NCBI GenBank assembly: GCA_027340875.1
Contig: DAIENX010000058.1
Coordinates: 1 to 18,698 of the forward strand
DNA length: 18,698 nucleotides
Direction: 5' to 3'
From: Elusimicrobiota bacterium
GTDB taxonomy: Bacteria; Elusimicrobiota; Elusimicrobia; Elusimicrobiales; UBA9959
The notes below the pieces were generated by a model. It searched no databases and was not told where the DNA came from. It was given only the letters and a program-made list of their open reading frames with translations. Positions 1 to 18,698 of this stretch are shown here, one piece after another. Each line of letters begins with the position of its first letter. Within the stretch, counting starts at the first letter, position 1. The translations under genes and the position numbers were made by a program.

Positions 1-93
1 CTCCGCGTCCCCGGCATAGGCGAGGCAGGTGTTCTTAGCCAGGCCCCGCTCCATGCCGAGATGCCGCGAGAAATCTTCCGCCAGCGGCCGCAT
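1..93 (-). CDS. xerD: Tyrosine recombinase XerD/XerC family, N-terminal 31 aa (runs off the left edge)
   Basis: Not in the ORF track. ATG at 93-91 overlaps the recA stop (TAATG). Hand translation [31 protein letters not shown] matches the XerD N-terminal pattern F..L..ERGLs.NT..AY..D. XerD vs XerC cannot be fully resolved from 31 aa. Confidence 0.8.
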   Translation of the reverse strand, partial: MRPLAEDFSRHLGMERGLAKNTCLAYAGDAE

Positions 94-1178
94 TACTTGC
101 GGGCTACTTTTTCGCGCTTATCTGCCTTCTCCGCGGGTTTCTCTTCCTGCGCGGGCGCCGCTGCGGCCGCGGGCTTCGGCGCCGGCTTGGGCATGAACCG
201 GGCGCGCAGCTCGGTCTCTATCTCCTTCGCCACGTCCTGGTGCAGCCTGAGGTAGTCCTTGGCGTTGTCGCGGCCCTGGCCTATGCGGTCGCTCTTGTAG
301 ATGTACCAGGTGCCGGACTTTTCCAGCAGGCCGCACTCCACGCCCATGTCGAGCAGGCAGCCCTCGGTGGAGATACCCTCGCCGTTGACCATCTCGAACT
401 CGGCCTGGCGGTAGGGCGGCGCGACCTTGTTCTTGACCACCTTCACGCGGATGCGCGCGCCGGTAACGACTTCGGCCTTCTTGATGGTCTCTATCTTCCT
501 GATGTCCATGCGCACGGAGGAGTAGAACTTGAGCGCGAGGCCGCCGGGCGTGGTCTCGGGGTTGCCGAACATCACGCCTATCTTGTGGCGGATCTGGTTG
601 ATGAACATCACGGACGTCTTGGTGGACGCCACGATGGAGGTGAGCTTGCGCAGCGCCTGGCTCATAAGTCTCGCCTGCAGGCCCACGTGCAGGTCGCCCA
701 TCTCGCCCTCTATCTCGGCCTTGGGCACGAGAGCGGCCACCGAGTCTATCACGATGATGTCCAGCGCGCCCGAACGCACCAGCTTCTCGGCTATCTCGAG
801 GGCCTGCTCGCCGGAGTCGGGCTGGGAGATCAGCAGGTTGTCCACGTCAACGCCCAGCTTCTGCGCGTAGATAGGGTCCAGCGCGTGCTCGGCGTCTATG
901 AACGCGGCCATGCCGCCGTTCTTCTGCGCCTGCGCTATCACGTGCAGGGTCAAAGTGGTCTTGCCGGAAGCCTCCGGGCCGTATACCTCTATCACGCGGC
1001 CGCGGGGCAGGCCGCCCACTCCGAGCGCCAGGTCCAGGCTCAGCGCGCCGGTGGGTATGACCTCCACCTTCATCTTGGCGCTGCGCTCGCCCAGCTTCAT
1101 GATGGCCTCTTTGCCGTAGCTCTTCTCTATCTGCGACAGCGCCGCTTCCAGCGCCCTGCTCTTCTCGTCGTTAACCAT
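93..1178 (-). CDS. recA: Recombinase RecA (361 aa)
   Basis: Walker [60 protein letters not shown] at 1192-1187. Confidence 0.99.
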
Positions 1179-1300
1179 GATATAGAACCTCCGTGTAATT
1201 TAAATCCTATGCAAATAGTTTACACTCTCATCCCGTCAAGGGCGTGTCGGGATAAAAATCGTGAAAAAATATTTTTTCTGACAGACGCTCACCATGTATT

Positions 1301-1328
1301 ATGTTAACATTTTCCCTGAAAAAGTAAA
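1301..1328 (-). promoter_or_regulatory. Candidate recA promoter
   Basis: Minus strand TTTACT (1328-1323), N16, TAACAT (1306-1301), preceded by TGn (extended -10). Lies just downstream of the 1355-1388 hairpin. Weak match. Confidence 0.3.
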
Positions 1329-1354: not shown

Positions 1355-1388
1355 AGATAAAGCCCTTCGCATGCAAAGGGCTTTATCT
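1355..1388 (-). terminator. Intrinsic terminator after the microprotein gene
   Basis: Perfect 13-bp inverted repeat AGATAAAGCCCTT-N8-AAGGGCTTTATCT, 23 nt past the TAG at 1412, with a T-rich 3' arm and tail on the minus strand. Confidence 0.7.
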
Positions 1389-1411: not shown

Positions 1412-1534
1412 CTAGTTCCGCTTTTTTATGCGTTCAACAACAGTGGTACTAGGGCGGGACCGAGCAACTTTTACAGGAATAAATAAGCCTGTATTCGCAT
1501 CTCGGCCAATCAAAAATGATTTGCCTTTAGCCAT
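1412..1534 (-). CDS. Unannotated 40-aa basic microprotein MAKGKSFLIGRDANTGLFIPVKVARSRPSTTVVERIKKRN
   Basis: Below the ORF-track cutoff. ATG at 1534, TAG at 1414-1412. SD AAGGAGGT (1547-1540) 5 nt upstream, near-consensus promoter upstream and terminator downstream. 10 K/R vs 2 D/E. Confidence 0.85.
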   Translation of the reverse strand: MAKGKSFLIGRDANTGLFIPVKVARSRPSTTVVERIKKRN

Positions 1535-1592
1535 GGCACACCTCCTTCTTGTTAAAGATCCATGAGCCCATGCTCACAGCTACTACCCTTGT

Positions 1593-1621
1593 AGTATAAA
1601 GGATTTTCCCGTGTTTGTCAA
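1593..1621 (-). promoter_or_regulatory. Sigma70-type promoter for the microprotein gene
   Basis: Minus strand TTGACA (1621-1616), N17, TATACT (1598-1593). Confidence 0.8.
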
Positions 1622-1635
1622 GTATTAAGGAGATA

Positions 1636-1664
1636 TTGACTTTAGCACTTTAATATATTATCCT
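1636..1664 (+). promoter_or_regulatory. Sigma70-type promoter giving a leaderless transcript of the LexA-like gene
   Basis: TTGACT (1636-1641), N17, TATCCT (1659-1664). The expected start 7 nt later is the A of the ATG at 1671. No SD near the ATG. Confidence 0.7.
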
Positions 1665-1670
1665 TTATAT

Positions 1671-2327
1671 ATGCACCCTATACAAGAGAAGCTCCTCAAC
1701 CTTTCCAAGGGAACGAACCTCGCCCAGATCAGCCTGCGCGAGATGGCCGCGGCCATCGGCCTGCCGGCCGAGTCCCCCCAGAAGATAAAGCACCATCTGC
1801 AGCAGCTGGAGAAGAAGGGCTTCCTATCCATAGACCGCGCCAAGGGCCTGATGGAGAAGGCTTCCCTGCTGCCCGGCCTCGCCAGCGGCCTGCTCAAGGA
1901 GGCCTCCTCGCTGTTCTCCATACCCATAGTCGGCACCGCCAACTGCGGACCCGCCACTATCTACGCCGAGCAGAACTTCGAGGGCTTCCTGCGCGTCTCG
2001 GGACGGCTGCTGGGGCGCTCGACCCCGGCCGGCCTGTACGCCATAAAGACCAACGGCTCTTCGATGAACCGCGCCGAGATAGGCGGCAGGAAGATAGAGG
2101 ACGGCGACTACGTGGTGATAGACAGCGGCAGGCGGGAGCCGGCCAACAACGACATAGTGCTGGCCATCATAGACAACAAGGCCACCATAAAGCGCTTCAT
2201 TGACGACAGGGCGAACGGCCAGGTGATACTGAAGGCGGACTCCTCCTACGACTACGAGCCCATCTATCTGCACCCGGACGACGACTTCCTGATAAACGGC
2301 AAGGCCATAGCAGTCATCAAGCACTGA
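1671..2327 (+). CDS. LexA/CI-like transcriptional repressor (N-terminal HTH plus S24 self-cleaving peptidase), 218 aa
   Basis: SLREMAAAIG...KIKHHLQQLEKKGFL winged-HTH-like N-terminus. IPIVGTANCGP cleavage loop (C92-G93), catalytic Ser in NGSSM (S131), IEDGDYVVID, catalytic Lys in ATIKRF (K174). Recognition helix is non-canonical, so lexA is not assigned. Confidence 0.9.
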   Translation: MHPIQEKLLNLSKGTNLAQISLREMAAAIGLPAESPQKIKHHLQQLEKKGFLSIDRAKGLMEKASLLPGLASGLLKEASSLFSIPIVGTANCGPATIYAEQNFEGFLRVSGRLLGRSTPAGLYAIKTNGSSMNRAEIGGRKIEDGDYVVIDSGRREPANNDIVLAIIDNKATIKRFIDDRANGQVILKADSSYDYEPIYLHPDDDFLINGKAIAVIKH

Positions 2328-2427: not shown

Positions 2428-2676
2428 ATGGCGAACCCTAAATTCATGAAAGAGATGCAGCCGGACGCGGACCTGGGTGCCGTTATCGGCAACGAGCCCG
2501 TCGCCCGCCCCACCGCGGTCAAGAAGATCTGGGACTATATCAAGAAGAACGGCCTGCAGGACAAGGTCAACAAGCGCAACATCAACGCCGACGAGAAGCT
2601 GCTGAAGGTCTTCGGCGGCAAGAAGCAGGTCACGATGTTCGAGCTGGCCGGCATACTCGGCAAGCACCTGAAGTAA
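2428..2676 (+). CDS. Stand-alone SWIB/MDM2 domain protein (82 aa)
   Basis: PDADLGAVIG..PVARPTAVKKIWDYIKKNGLQD..NKRNINADEKLLKVFGGKKQVTMFEL is the typical bacterial SWIB signature. Strong SD. Confidence 0.93.
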   Translation: MANPKFMKEMQPDADLGAVIGNEPVARPTAVKKIWDYIKKNGLQDKVNKRNINADEKLLKVFGGKKQVTMFELAGILGKHLK

Positions 2677-14004: not shown

Positions 14005-14985
14005 TCAGAATCCCCGGGAGCGGCGGCCGAACCTGACCGTCACAGAGACACGGTGGGTGTTGCCCAGGTCCCCCATAGGGGAATAGGCGTAATCTATAAG
14101 GTAGCTGGACATGTCCATGCCCAGGCCGGCGGAGATGCCGGAGGAGTCGCCCGTGGCGGCCGTACGGTAGCCCAGTCTCATCGAGAAGGCCGCGCCCTTG
14201 TCATAGGAGGTGGTCATCTCGACCCCGGCGTTGCCGTAGATCCCGGCATCCCTCAGATAATTCACGTCGGTGAAGAAAGCCGCGCTCTTGTGCATGCGGC
14301 GGTCGCGCCCGAACGGCAGGTGATAGGCCCCGCCGAGCCTGACGTTGAGCGGCAGCGGGTCGGACCGGCTCCTGAACTTCAGCGGCCCGCCGAAGTTCTG
14401 CGCCGAGAGGCCGAAATCCAGTTTTCCCGGGATAGCGGCGTACCTCAGCCCGCCGTCCAGCGCGAGCGCGGAGGCGTTGGCCGTCTCCAGGCGGCTTGAG
14501 ATGTACTTGGCCGCGAACCCCAGGTCCAGCCGGGAGGCCACCCGCCGGGCGTAGCCCAGCATTACGGCGGCATCGGAAGCCGAATAGGAGGCGGAGAGGT
14601 CGTTGCCGAACTTGTCGTACTTGTCTATGGAAGGGCAGTCCAGATAGCTTATACCGAAGCCCACCACTCCTGAATACCGTTTGGCGGCGAAGGCCAGGCT
14701 GGAGTAGCCGATGTCGCCTATCCAGCGGGCATGGGAGAAGAACAGCTCGGGACCTGTCACCGCGGCCAGGCCGGCCGGGTTATAGAACAGCCCGGAAGCC
14801 CCGGAGAGCGCGGCCCCCGTCTCGCCCAGCGCGGACGACCTGGCGTCCACGCCTATGCGCAGGAACTGGCCGCCGGATACTCCCTCGTCGGCGGAGAAGG
14901 CCGGCAGCGCCAGCGGCGCCAGCGACAGCGCGGCCAGAACGCAACCCGCGAACAGCCTGCGACCCATCATGTTCGTCCGCGTCAT
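14005..14985 (-). CDS. PorV/PorQ-family outer-membrane beta-barrel protein
   Basis: Signal peptide, then FLRIGVDARSSALGE...LFYNPAGLA, alternating beta-strand pattern, IDYAYSPMGDLGNTHRVSV, terminal Phe. ATG overlaps the upstream stop (ATGA). Confidence 0.85.
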   Translation of the reverse strand: MTRTNMMGRRLFAGCVLAALSLAPLALPAFSADEGVSGGQFLRIGVDARSSALGETGAALSGASGLFYNPAGLAAVTGPELFFSHARWIGDIGYSSLAFAAKRYSGVVGFGISYLDCPSIDKYDKFGNDLSASYSASDAAVMLGYARRVASRLDLGFAAKYISSRLETANASALALDGGLRYAAIPGKLDFGLSAQNFGGPLKFRSRSDPLPLNVRLGGAYHLPFGRDRRMHKSAAFFTDVNYLRDAGIYGNAGVEMTTSYDKGAAFSMRLGYRTAATGDSSGISAGLGMDMSSYLIDYAYSPMGDLGNTHRVSVTVRFGRRSRGF

Positions 14986-17900
14986 CGTATTATCACCACC
15001 TTGCCGGATTTCTTGCCGCCGGCGGGGGATTTGACCAGGTATATGTAGACGCCCGAGGCGACGCGCGAGCCGGACTTGTTACGGGTGTCCCAGAAGCAGC
15101 GTCCGTCCAGGTCGTCGTCGGACAGCTCCCTGACGAGCCCGCCGGCCAGGTCGTAGATCCTGATGGTGGAAGCCTCCGGCAGCGACTCGAACACTATTCC
15201 GTCCCCGAGCGACGACTGCCCGAACAGGCCGGGACTGCCCGGCTTGTACGGGTTGGGATAGGCGAACACCTTGGAGATCGGGCCGGCGTACGAGATCACG
15301 CTGGCGAGCGCGTAGATGGAGAAGTGGCGGGTGTCCAGGTACACCGTCTTGGCCGCTCTGTCCAGCACCGAGTTACGCTGCAGCACCCACTCGAGCGTGG
15401 CCGGGTCCAGCAGCAGGATGCGCAGCGTGCCCACATCCACGGCCGTGCCGTCCACTATGCCGTCGTTATTGGCGTCCAGGTAGGCGAACTTCACCCGCGC
15501 GGGGACGGCGAAGCTGGCCGTGTCGAGGGCGCCGTACATGTCCCAGCGGCGCAGCTCCACCACGCCGCCGTTCAGCAGGCTGCCCAGGGTCATCCTGGCC
15601 GTGGCGGCCGTCAGGTCCGAGCTGCTGATCTCCACCGGCGCGGTGGCCGCGCTGGTGCTCAGCGAGATGTAGTCGTCCGCGGCGATGGCGCCGGCGGGGA
15701 TGGTCACGCTCAGCGTGCCCAGGCCCGGCAGCGGCGCGCTGACCGTCAGGGCCGCCGTTGCCGTCGAGTAGACCTGCGTCACGTCCGCCGGCAGGTAGTC
15801 GGTGCGGATGCCGGCCGAGGTGGCGCTGGAGGCGCTCAGCACGCCGTCCGAGTTGTAGGCGAACGCCGCATAGTAGTAGGTGGCGGCCGCGCGCAGGCCC
15901 GTGTCGGTGTAGGTCGAGACGGTCAGCGCGTCGTTCCAGCTCTTGAGCGTGGTCCACGCGACGCCGTCGGCCGAGCGGTCCAGCCGGTAGCGAGTGCCGC
16001 CGTTGCCGGTCCAGCCCAGCGTTATCGTGTGCAGGCCGGTGGCCGAGGAGGTCAGCGCCGACGGGGCCAGCGCGTACGTGACGGCCGACGCCTCGGAGTA
16101 GTCGCTCTCGCCCATCGTGGTAACGGACCTGATCCGGCGGGTGTAGCCGGCGTTGGCGCTGGACAGCCCCACCTCGGTCCAATAGGTGGCCGCGGCGCTC
16201 AGGCCGGACGCCAGTATGCCGTTGGTCGAGGTGTAGACGTTGAAGGACAGCACCCCCGGCACGGAGTTGGTCCACGACCAGTTGATGGTTCCGGTGCCGG
16301 CGGCGGCGGCATAGAGGACCGGCGCTATCTGCACCGTCATCGTGCTTTCCACGAAGCTGTAGTCCCTGCGGTTGCCGTTGGTAGCGGTGGACAGGCCCAG
16401 CGTCTGGAAACCATGCTGGTTTATAGCGCCGATGCGGTAGGTATACGTGGTCGACGTGGCCAGCCCCGAGGCGGAGATGTCCAGACCGGAATCGAGATAA
16501 TGGTTCCCGGTCACGCTGGAGAGGAATACCCACGGTCCGTCCTCGCCCATGGTCGTTGAGCGCTCCACCCGGTACTGGGTGGCCGGCACCTGTGGCTCCT
16601 TCCACCAGAGGCCTATGGTATGCGCGGTGATGGTGTCGAAGCTGACGTCGTTGGGCGGCGTGGCGAACGTGGCGCCGGTGAACGGAGTGGTGATGCCCCC
16701 GTAGACGTTATAGCCCGTGGCCGGGGCGGCTTGGACAGGCCCTATATACCTGGTATGGGTGCTGTTGGTTATCAGGTAGTCCAGCGTGTACTCGGCAGTG
16801 GCGGTCCCGGGTATATAGGCTATCCCAAGCACGAAATCGCCGTATTCCTCCGTGTGGCTGTCAATGCCTATCTCGTAGCCGCTGATGTAATCCATGCTGG
16901 CGTACGTGCCGGTTGACTTGGCCCAGCTCCATTTCAGCGAGGTGTCAGTCACGGCGGTCACTTCGACGTCGGGTATTGGCGGCCTGGTGAGCAGCTTTTC
17001 CAGGGCGCTGTAGGCGTACGGGTTATAGGCGTCGTCCGGGGTCTGCAGGCCGTCGCCGTTTATGGCCCCGATCTTGAAGTCGTGCTTGGTGTTAGACCGG
17101 AGCCCAGTCACCGCCGTAGGCCCGCTTACTATCGAGGAGGAGAACCACACGCCGAAATCGGCCGAGGTCTGCAGAGCCGTGGCGGTGGAGTACTTTATCA
17201 CGTACTTGCTCGCGGAGGTAAGGTTCCAGGTAAGATTGACGGAATCCCTGAACACGTTCTTGAACTCCGGGAAGACGGGAGCGCAAGTCGACGGCGCCAC
17301 GGCGTAGGTATAGCGCTTGTAGGCCGTGCGGCCGGCGCTTTCGGCCAGGCCGACGGCCTTTATCCAGCGCGAATGCAGGGAATTGGCCGTATCGGAGCCG
17401 TTAAAGGCCTCTATCCAATAGGTGGCGGAGGCGGCCAGGGACTGCATTACCTCCCCGGTCTCGCCGGCGGGCGGGTCGCCGGCCTCGGTGGAGGTGGCGC
17501 GATAGACGTTGAAGCCCGTGATGCCGGTACCGGCCACGGAGGCGGGATCCCAGCGCCACTCTATGGTGTAGGACGAGATCGCTACGCCGGTCATCGTCAT
17601 GTTGAGCGGCGGCGTGGTGGCCGTCAGGACGGTGCTGTAATAGCCCGGGGAGAGCTCGTTGTCGCCGTTCACCGCGCCTATCCTTATGCGGTAGGACTTG
17701 TTGCTCATCAGCGCGACGGTCTGCCACGGCACGAAGGCGTCCCTGATGCGGTAATAGCTGGCCCCGCCGTCCGTAGAGCCTTCCACCGCGTAGGCCGTGG
17801 CGGTGCTGTAGCGCCACTCGAGATAGGCGCTGGTGGCGGTCACGGTGCTCAGCGTGAACGAGTCGGGCGGGATGGCGTTGGTGTACTTGGCGATATGCTG

Positions 17901-18698
17901 CGAAGCCGCGCTCTCCGCGGCGCCGGTGTAGGAGGTCAGCCACCTGGTATAGGGCTTGTTGGGGCCCAGGCCCGTGTCCGTGTAGGAGCTGGTGGCGGAG
18001 CTGAGGGTTATCTTGTTCGCGGTGCTGGAGGAGTACAGGTAGTACCCGTCCACCCCGGCGACCAGCGGCCACTTCCACTCCAGGCTGGTAGTGGAGAGCG
18101 CTATGCCCTTGAAGGCGGTGGCGAGGTCGTCGCCTCCCAGCGCGTAGAACGAGAAATGCGGCACGTCGGCGTAGACGGTCTTAGTTCCCGCGTTCAGCGT
18201 GGAGTTGGGCAGCTGGTTCCAGAGCAGGGCGGAGGTGTCGAGGCCGTAGAGCCTGAGCGTGCTCACGCGCACGCGGGTGCCGTCCACTATGCCGTCGCCG
18301 TCCGCGTCGGGATAGGTTATGGCCACCCGCGCGGCGGAGGGCAGCGTGGCGGTGGAGGCTATGCCGTAGACGTCGAACAGGTGCAGCTCCACGATATTGT
18401 CCGGGACCAGCGTGGCGTCCGTCAGCCTGGCGGTGGCGTCGTCCAGGGCGTTCTTGGAGACGTCGACGGGAGCGGTAGCGGCGCTGGTGCTTATCCAGAA
18501 GTAGCCGTCAGGAGTGCCGGCGGGGATCGTGACCGTTACCAGCCCCGGGCCCGGCAGCGGCGCCGTGACGTTCTTCGCGGAGTCGGTGGCGAAGACCGCG
18601 GTGTACATGGACGGCAGCGGCAGCGTGACCCCGTAGGTGACGGCGCTGGAAAGGGATATCATGCCGTCGTCGTTATAGGCGCCCACCGCGTAATAGTA
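14982..18698 (-). CDS. Large secreted protein with FN3-like repeats, two ZU5-like (HFS) domains and a T9SS-like/FlgD-Ig C-terminal sorting domain; 5' end outside the window
   Basis: Frame is open to the edge (YYYAVGAYN...). Repeats of the types xWxW and YxxRIGAxNxxG. C-terminus VFAYPNPYKP...IRIYDLAGGLVREL...WDTRNKSGSRVASGVYIYLV...GKVVIIR. Confidence 0.88.
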   Translation of the reverse strand, partial: YYYAVGAYNDDGMISLSSAVTYGVTLPLPSMYTAVFATDSAKNVTAPLPGPGLVTVTIPAGTPDGYFWISTSAATAPVDVSKNALDDATARLTDATLVPDNIVELHLFDVYGIASTATLPSAARVAITYPDADGDGIVDGTRVRVSTLRLYGLDTSALLWNQLPNSTLNAGTKTVYADVPHFSFYALGGDDLATAFKGIALSTTSLEWKWPLVAGVDGYYLYSSSTANKITLSSATSSYTDTGLGPNKPYTRWLTSYTGAAESAASQHIAKYTNAIPPDSFTLSTVTATSAYLEWRYSTATAYAVEGSTDGGASYYRIRDAFVPWQTVALMSNKSYRIRIGAVNGDNELSPGYYSTVLTATTPPLNMTMTGVAISSYTIEWRWDPASVAGTGITGFNVYRATSTEAGDPPAGETGEVMQSLAASATYWIEAFNGSDTANSLHSRWIKAVGLAESAGRTAYKRYTYAVAPSTCAPVFPEFKNVFRDSVNLTWNLTSASKYVIKYSTATALQTSADFGVWFSSSIVSGPTAVTGLRSNTKHDFKIGAINGDGLQTPDDAYNPYAYSALEKLLTRPPIPDVEVTAVTDTSLKWSWAKSTGTYASMDYISGYEIGIDSHTEEYGDFVLGIAYIPGTATAEYTLDYLITNSTHTRYIGPVQAAPATGYNVYGGITTPFTGATFATPPNDVSFDTITAHTIGLWWKEPQVPATQYRVERSTTMGEDGPWVFLSSVTGNHYLDSGLDISASGLATSTTYTYRIGAINQHGFQTLGLSTATNGNRRDYSFVESTMTVQIAPVLYAAAAGTGTINWSWTNSVPGVLSFNVYTSTNGILASGLSAAATYWTEVGLSSANAGYTRRIRSVTTMGESDYSEASAVTYALAPSALTSSATGLHTITLGWTGNGGTRYRLDRSADGVAWTTLKSWNDALTVSTYTDTGLRAAATYYYAAFAYNSDGVLSASSATSAGIRTDYLPADVTQVYSTATAALTVSAPLPGLGTLSVTIPAGAIAADDYISLSTSAATAPVEISSSDLTAATARMTLGSLLNGGVVELRRWDMYGALDTASFAVPARVKFAYLDANNDGIVDGTAVDVGTLRILLLDPATLEWVLQRNSVLDRAAKTVYLDTRHFSIYALASVISYAGPISKVFAYPNPYKPGSPGLFGQSSLGDGIVFESLPEASTIRIYDLAGGLVRELSDDDLDGRCFWDTRNKSGSRVASGVYIYLVKSPAGGKKSGKVVIIR
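15306..15878 (-). repeat. Internal duplicated module, C-terminal copy (FN3 end plus ZU5-like domain)
   Basis: Aligns with 18138-18698: APLPG.G...VTIPAG, STSAATAPV, VEL, Y.DA..DGIVDGT.V.V.TLR, KTVY.D..HFS.YAL. Exact 21-nt match at 15445-15465 and 18277-18297. Confidence 0.9.
18138..18698 (-). repeat. Internal duplicated module, N-proximal copy
   Basis: See 15306-15878. HFS codons at 18158-18150. Confidence 0.9.

Follow-up and report, generated by a model that had tools for sequence, protein, structure and literature searches.

Several described systems resemble, each in part, the small gene studied here. RecX and DinI are small modulators of RecA. Transporter insertion sequences of the IS1595 family (tIS), for example MTnSag1 and tISCpe8, are described in the available part of one paper as having terminal repeats of about 25 bp and an 8-bp target duplication (PMC5704250). 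DUF2188 and DUF3892 are small uncharacterized genes that lie opposite a pair of HTH and M78 genes and are linked to defense, according to the accessible text of a preprint (bioRxiv 10.1101/2022.04.27.489752). YegP/DUF1508 is a small stress-linked domain present near damage-regulated immune operons, either as a single copy or as a tandem pseudo-dimer, as stated in the accessible portions of two sources (bioRxiv 10.1101/2024.11.21.623966, PMC13373217).

We analyzed a microprotein gene located in the spacer between recA and a divergent LexA-like gene. The window, by which we mean the whole stretch of 18,698 nucleotides that was analyzed, contains the following features around it, in order of position:

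93..1178, minus strand: recA (Pfam RecA, E 8e-137)
1232..1251, either strand: palindrome CCCGACA-N6-TGTCGGG, a candidate operator in the recA-proximal promoter, downstream of the insertion; in 27/28 spacers
1301..1310, either strand: conserved palindrome ATGTTAACAT, part of the recA leader of the host; in 19/28 spacers and single copy in the genome
1320..1570, either strand: approximate extent of a lineage-specific insertion holding ribosome site, ORF and hairpin; ends inexact
1355..1388, minus strand: 17-bp hairpin, a probable terminator, 24 nt past the microprotein stop codon
1412..1534, minus strand: microprotein gene of the GRDAxTGxF...RPxTTVVE family, 40 aa, with every invariant family residue intact
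1539..1547, minus strand: Shine–Dalgarno site AAGGAGGTG, directly 5' of the microprotein ATG
1593..1621, minus strand: sigma-70-type promoter match, an ancestral host element that points to recA and now lies 5' of the microprotein gene
1636..1664, plus strand: lexA promoter match, back to back with the microprotein promoter
1671..2327, plus strand: LexA-like repressor (LexA DNA-binding domain and S24 peptidase), beside recA across the genus
2428..2676, plus strand: stand-alone SWIB-domain gene, a neighbor unlinked to the microprotein family

The likeness to each of the described systems is incomplete. The microprotein shares its small size with RecX and DinI, and the window copy adjoins recA, but it matches neither family and its relatives lack linkage to recA. 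It differs from ribosomal proteins in matching no family or PDB entry, and it is carried by 0/42 other genomes of the genus. Like tIS passengers, some members of its family lie within IS1595 elements that have terminal repeats and 8-bp duplications; however, the window copy has neither transposase nor IS ends, most family members lie outside IS1595 elements, and the passengers described in the available part of the tIS paper are resistance genes (PMC5704250). Some relatives show the same opposite-strand arrangement as DUF2188 and DUF3892 in CapH/CapP operons, but the microprotein has no Pfam match to either, only a minority of its family has that context, and the divergent gene in the window is an S24 LexA-like repressor and not an HTH and M78 pair. 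As in YegP/DUF1508, the units are small and are found singly or in tandem. Against this, a profile comparison with one DUF1508 protein gave a probability of 0.56%, there was no Pfam hit and the microprotein unit is shorter.

The ORF is almost certainly a real gene. Its 40-residue translation is as the original prediction gave it, and our recomputed net charge agrees at +8 (10 K+R against 2 D+E). The prediction had also placed the strongest expression signals of the window here, and this stood up to scoring: the promoter match, TTGACA-17-TATACT at 1621..1593 (11/12), has the top score among 10 sites in the whole window (shuffled sequences have a mean of 2.7 sites), and the Shine–Dalgarno pairing of −12.3 kcal/mol has a score reached by 1 of the 411 window ATGs, this one. 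The promoter is the host's, though. The hairpin 3' of the gene has a z of −2.36, with 3/200 shuffles equally good, and was absent from the terminator-scan output. At third codon positions the gene has a GC content (GC3) of 0.35 versus 0.87–0.94 in five other window genes. The order is recA (93–1178, minus), the microprotein (minus), the divergent LexA-like gene (1671–2327) and the SWIB gene. The earlier view that the protein lacks an HTH and is not a Cro agrees with the lack of a Pfam match at E ≤ 1 and with a structure model that contains a single six-residue helix.

The window copy is a recent insertion with foreign codon use. The recA–lexA spacer measures 492 nt here versus 169–395 nt in 27 relatives, and alignment with 10 of these 27 placed the extra DNA, ∼250 nt in size, at about 1320–1570. 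A lexA orthologue was present in 27/42 genomes of the genus, with recA upstream in 27/27 and the microprotein in 0/27; a family profile search found the microprotein in 0/42 (thus 1/43 including the window genome). Beyond the genus, the profile matched 7/400 other genomes of the phylum, a patchy distribution. The promoter pattern, by contrast, is kept in 28/28 recA–lexA spacers of the genus, 27 of them without the microprotein ORF, and it is therefore older than the microprotein gene: the promoter is the host's own and not the gene's. In its codon core, the window copy has a GC3 of 0.28, whereas none of the 33 homologues whose loci exceed 58% GC falls below 0.48; across the family, GC3 tracks the host (r 0.83). 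Since recA has a second, proximal promoter region downstream of the insertion, it need not be silenced.

We found no terminal repeats or target duplication at the insertion and no direct repeat of at least six bases at its borders, and comparison with four family terminal inverted repeats gave at best 9–11 mismatches of 22. There was no IS1595 transposase in the window, and PF12762 was not found in this genome (G000, 92% complete). No near-identical donor was detected, the best protein identity being 74% among 80 metagenome loci (the best 80 of 418). Contigs of 4/4 sequencing runs, from one study that possibly includes the source sample, hold 1195–2000 as one piece with zero differences, and given these intact contigs a misassembly at the locus is not supported. 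In two relatives (L017 and L020), different insertions, unrelated to this one, interrupt the recA leader, and the recA–lexA spacer may be an insertion hotspot.

To collect homologues, we used four unannotated plasmid ORFs to make a seed alignment; a single-sequence query had returned no homologues owing to its length, and the five-sequence alignment solved this. With the seed profile, 1,968 of 2,025 candidates of 22–79 aa passed E ≤ 0.01, and the motif is therefore not due to chance. A broader profile, which also covers an RSAxTG...HPxTTVxE subfamily from the same phylum, matched, at E ≤ 0.001, 3,061 representatives in a set of 1.84 billion clustered at 50% identity. The single-protein relatives search had given weak matches only (E 0.017–0.84), and three of these places later passed the profile or fell in the RSAxTG subfamily (G045, G057). 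The genome loci (the best 80 of 159) come from Proteobacteria, Bacteroidota, Chloroflexota, Planctomycetota, CPR and others; viral contigs carry 18/34 pattern matches, and 36 and 65 plasmid records hold family members. Members are single or tandem, the two-unit forms making up 57/138 new representatives in a ranking that favors tandems.

The original prediction had placed the motif in small proteins of many bacteria, often misannotated, and both points are supported: the family of about 36–55 aa crosses phyla with conservation at the protein level, and database entries that name its members at all call them "hypothetical protein," "Multidrug transporter" or "ABC transporter ATP-binding protein." Searches of Pfam, PHROGs and PDB sequences found no match, and NCBIfam gave a single chance match (E 0.045), the Pfam result applying to the window protein and four relatives as well as to three RSA-type relatives. 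The ESM Atlas contained three unnamed clusters of 38–46 aa at 0.87–0.88 and no named hit, which we regard as leads only. A literature search, covering papers outside their supplementary tables, found no description of the microprotein family.

For the codon analysis, 102 loci and the window gave 100 unique ungapped 25-codon cores; 8 loci that deviated from the pattern were excluded. The majority base had frequencies of 0.84, 0.89 and 0.40 at codon positions 1–3 of the 100 cores, and the third position was near saturation, with all six Arg codons in use at Arg11 and both families of Ser codons at Ser29. Among these homologues, pN/pS was 0.24 in frame versus 0.33–1.8 in other frames, in which 17–98 of the 100 cores had stops. 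The low pN and absent stops are partly built in because the homologues were chosen by protein similarity; the informative part of the selection evidence is the synonymous saturation, and judged by their codons the family members are under protein-level selection. The synonymous saturation also rules out the alternative that an RNA, and not a protein, is what is conserved.

We next turn to the neighborhoods of the relatives. Genes were called with a simple ORF picker, and 264 of the 302 first and second neighbors of the 80 genome loci were scanned against Pfam; 38 second neighbors, mostly apparent housekeeping genes, were left out by eye. The classes tallied were transposase, recombinase, plasmid or phage gene, toxin–antitoxin (TA), restriction/CBASS/Abi-type and ImmA peptidase. 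By this classification, which is our own and has no matched control, 47/80 loci have a mobile, TA, defense or ImmA gene within two genes, while 33/80 have none, among them several single copies beside housekeeping genes. An IS1595 transposase was present at 8/80 genome loci, and at five of the eight (L076, L089, L123, L124 and L144) the microprotein lies inside terminal inverted repeats; the enclosing elements are 2.2–2.9 kb long, with a clear 8-bp target duplication in four of the five. Locus L089 comes from Hyphomonas sp. L-53-1-40. At the other three of the eight, we found no repeat pair. In the metagenome set (the best 80 of 418, median locus 3.4 kb), IS1595 was found at 0/80 loci, and IS1595 is therefore one vehicle among several. 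One IS-borne copy (L123) has an in-frame stop.

A Pfam M78 gene lies no more than two genes away at 5/80 genome loci, and an S24 gene at 3/80. The metagenome set has ImmA-type genes at 6/80 loci from four lineages (four Pfam-checked, two near-copies of those) and a LexA-like S24 gene, 38–45% identical to the one in the window, at 6/80 loci from two lineages; in all, LexA-like genes lie near family members in three unrelated lineages. The same queries run on G000 matched 0 and 1 of ∼935 3-kb bins, which gives a rough background only. The predicted neighborhood of XRE/ImmA-type or S24 regulators thus applies to a minority of the family and fails for most loci. Eight chosen plasmid contexts included one tandem form, in Bradyrhizobium quebecense, opposite an ImmA and HTH pair and one, in Roseovarius sp. 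AK1035, placed first before a nucleotidyltransferase and a SLATT gene, and in the remaining ones viewed the gene stands beside Abi, restriction, AbiEii or sigma-like genes; members divergent from ImmA and HTH pairs occur in both plasmid and metagenome loci. The special links to SWIB and RecA that the original prediction had entertained were lost on wider comparison, as each of the two genes was found near homologues at 0/108 and 0/80 further loci (recA at 0/188), and the microprotein gene is absent from 42/42 genus genomes.

An SD-like word is present upstream at 62/77 loci, and in 66% of 77 the downstream hairpin is more stable than shuffles by >4 kcal/mol; we found no upstream motif common to the 77 leaders. 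The downstream gene is convergent at 33/78 loci. By these features, the gene is a self-contained cassette and not a fixed operon member. At eight loci (L048, L050, L051, L057, L058, L073, L092 and L100), the convergent partner is a protein of ∼85 aa that contains a WxDSH motif and matches no Pfam family, and this partner recurs at 5/80 metagenome loci. Ribonucleotide reductase genes stand beside 5/80 members (L085, L097, L110, L122 and L143), two of which lie between nrdA and nrdB, and beside two more in the metagenome set (L195 and L207); groEL is the neighbor of 2/80 members.

The predicted fold is hairpin–helix–strand, with strands at 6–12, 18–19 and 31–37 and a helix at 21–26 (pLDDT 86.6, pTM 0.51). 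A model of 40 residues gives structure searches little power: Foldseek returned 0/91 matches at E ≤ 0.001, and the best VIA match had a Z of 2.9 and an rmsd of 3.2 over 38 aligned residues. The absent fold match does not mean a new fold. In a tandem model both units fold, with no confidence in their packing (pTM 0.43). An N-terminal fusion to a HigA-like antitoxin was found in one lineage, and some short tails in the family are ones that we take to be antitoxin-like; apparent true fusions are few. Most long "fusions" were judged by eye to be wrong starts or read-through. Two tandem forms of Bacteroidota type (P0292, from a Bacteroidia genome, and P0371) have, by eye, an apparent signal peptide.

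On balance, we favor the reading that the microprotein is a portable accessory of mobile and damage-induced defense loci and probably a nucleic-acid-binding protein. An origin as mobile cargo is very likely; for the binding of nucleic acid, which rests on charge, size and context, we consider the chances about even. The family unit is a basic module of ∼30 residues, predicted to form a beta-hairpin, a short helix and a strand, and its gene a cassette of ribosome site, ORF and downstream hairpin. Such a cassette is carried by IS1595 transporter elements, other IS, integrative elements, plasmids and prophages and often ends up in defense, toxin–antitoxin or damage-inducible repressor loci. Here one copy, presumably from an AT-richer donor, recently entered the recA leader behind the conserved host promoter, with recA keeping a second, proximal promoter and its own putative operator. 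The protein may bind DNA or RNA through its hairpin and helix, which are basic; a dimer or a tandem pair is the probable binding form. It would act as a minor accessory in the stress or defense response of its carrier elements, not as a dedicated RecA partner. Its mode of work can be likened to that of DUF2188, DUF3892 and YegP proteins, without membership in those families. The kind is familiar, being accessory cargo of mobile and defense loci, and the family itself is large and unnamed. The tandem forms with signal peptides fit an intracellular regulator poorly.

The recurrent place beside ImmA and HTH pairs and LexA-like genes, here back to back with lexA, could also be that of a protein-binding modulator, one that tunes how the neighboring operon is induced by binding to an antitoxin or to a repressor of S24 or XRE/ImmA (CapH/CapP-like) type. 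The fusions to HigA-like and putative antitoxin tails point in this direction, and the invariant uncharged residues (Gly, Ala, Thr, Phe and Val) could make a specific surface. Most loci, however, have no such repressor, and the repressors that do adjoin the gene come from unrelated families, yet the microprotein barely varies; we consider a repressor binder unlikely. For the window copy in particular, we see some chance that it is a neutral recent passenger in this host, the family being functional elsewhere, or that only its hairpin matters by dampening read-through from the promoter upstream of it into recA. It is found in 1/43 genus genomes, the same spacer takes unrelated insertions (L017 and L020), an IS-borne copy carries a stop (L123) and its codons are un-ameliorated, so that an intact ORF is no proof of local selection. 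On the other side, the copy has lost none of the invariant residues and retains a very strong ribosome site, and the contigs of four runs, which drop rare variants, have no other allele across the ORF. A neutral copy in the window does not exclude the reading of the family as portable accessory cargo, with which it is compatible.

In its small size, its charge of +8, its lysine-rich tails and its strong signals for translation, the microprotein resembles small ribosome-bound proteins. This likeness, together with single copies often placed beside highly expressed operons, would suit a protein associated with the ribosome or RNA polymerase and modulating translation or transcription under stress. 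We think this very unlikely, given the missing match to a ribosomal family or PDB chain, the patchy presence in 8/401 genomes of the phylum, the tandem duplications and the carriage on mobile elements. The position directly upstream of recA on the same strand, within the recA–lexA divergon, suggests a dedicated RecA modulator of RecX or DinI type; against it stand the 0/108 and 0/80 homologue loci with recA, the 42 genus genomes in which the microprotein was not found, 27 of them with the same divergon, and the hairpin between the microprotein and recA, and such a role is hardly to be expected. A bolder form of the favored accessory-protein reading, in which a portable, damage-induced nucleic-acid-binding microprotein tunes damage sensing by coating single-stranded DNA or operators and so sets the firing of RecA–LexA, ImmA/IrrE or CapP, strikes us as quite improbable. 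If true, the outputs affected would be defense, toxin–antitoxin and mobile-element programs, and the protein would have spread across phyla on transporter IS and been recruited repeatedly beside unrelated damage-cleavable repressors.

The family comprises thousands of clusters from many phyla but is not modeled in Pfam, NCBIfam or PHROG, and most annotations miss it or misname it as a transporter. It recurs at the head of defense and toxin–antitoxin loci and inside transposons, and should it prove to bind nucleic acid or a damage sensor, it would be an overlooked component in switching on mobile elements and immune operons. At the locus studied here, a foreign gene has captured a conserved promoter of the recA–lexA divergon, and the microprotein is a defined, easily synthesized target for work on small proteins.

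The host side of the locus has features of its own. The LexA-like repressor falls below the TIGR00498 cutoff (79.5 vs. 110.95 bits). Its gene has no Shine–Dalgarno site, and the −10 match ends 6 nt 5' of the ATG; the transcript is seemingly leaderless. The available part of a LexA motif source (PMC7739468) gives no LexA motif for this lineage. The palindrome CCCGACA-N6-TGTCGGG was not found near the microprotein promoter, which adjoins that of lexA. Allowing one mismatch, it has 21 genome hits with a spacer of 6 versus 0–1 for spacers of 2–5 and 7–11; besides 1232–1251 of the window, there are 20 sites in G000, e.g., C78:43770, C74:33563, C22:20085, C69:18395 and C78:612. Copies lie 5' of recA, radC, a YifB/ComM-like ATPase, a repair radical SAM gene, a RecB-like helicase and hsdM, and further copies precede genes that we take to be of ORF6N type. 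The palindrome is a candidate operator of a repair or competence regulon, and its binder may be this LexA or another protein.

Compared with one relative (L017 in G023), RecA has 100% protein and 96.6% DNA identity, while LexA is only 92% identical. The contigs of co-occurring relatives branch at about 1195–1224, and recombination over recA between co-occurring species is possible. At the far end of the window, 14982–18686 on the minus strand presumably encodes a large secreted-type protein with repeated domains and is followed by a PorV-like gene. The genome G000 also contains a second recA 3' fragment, on contig C7.
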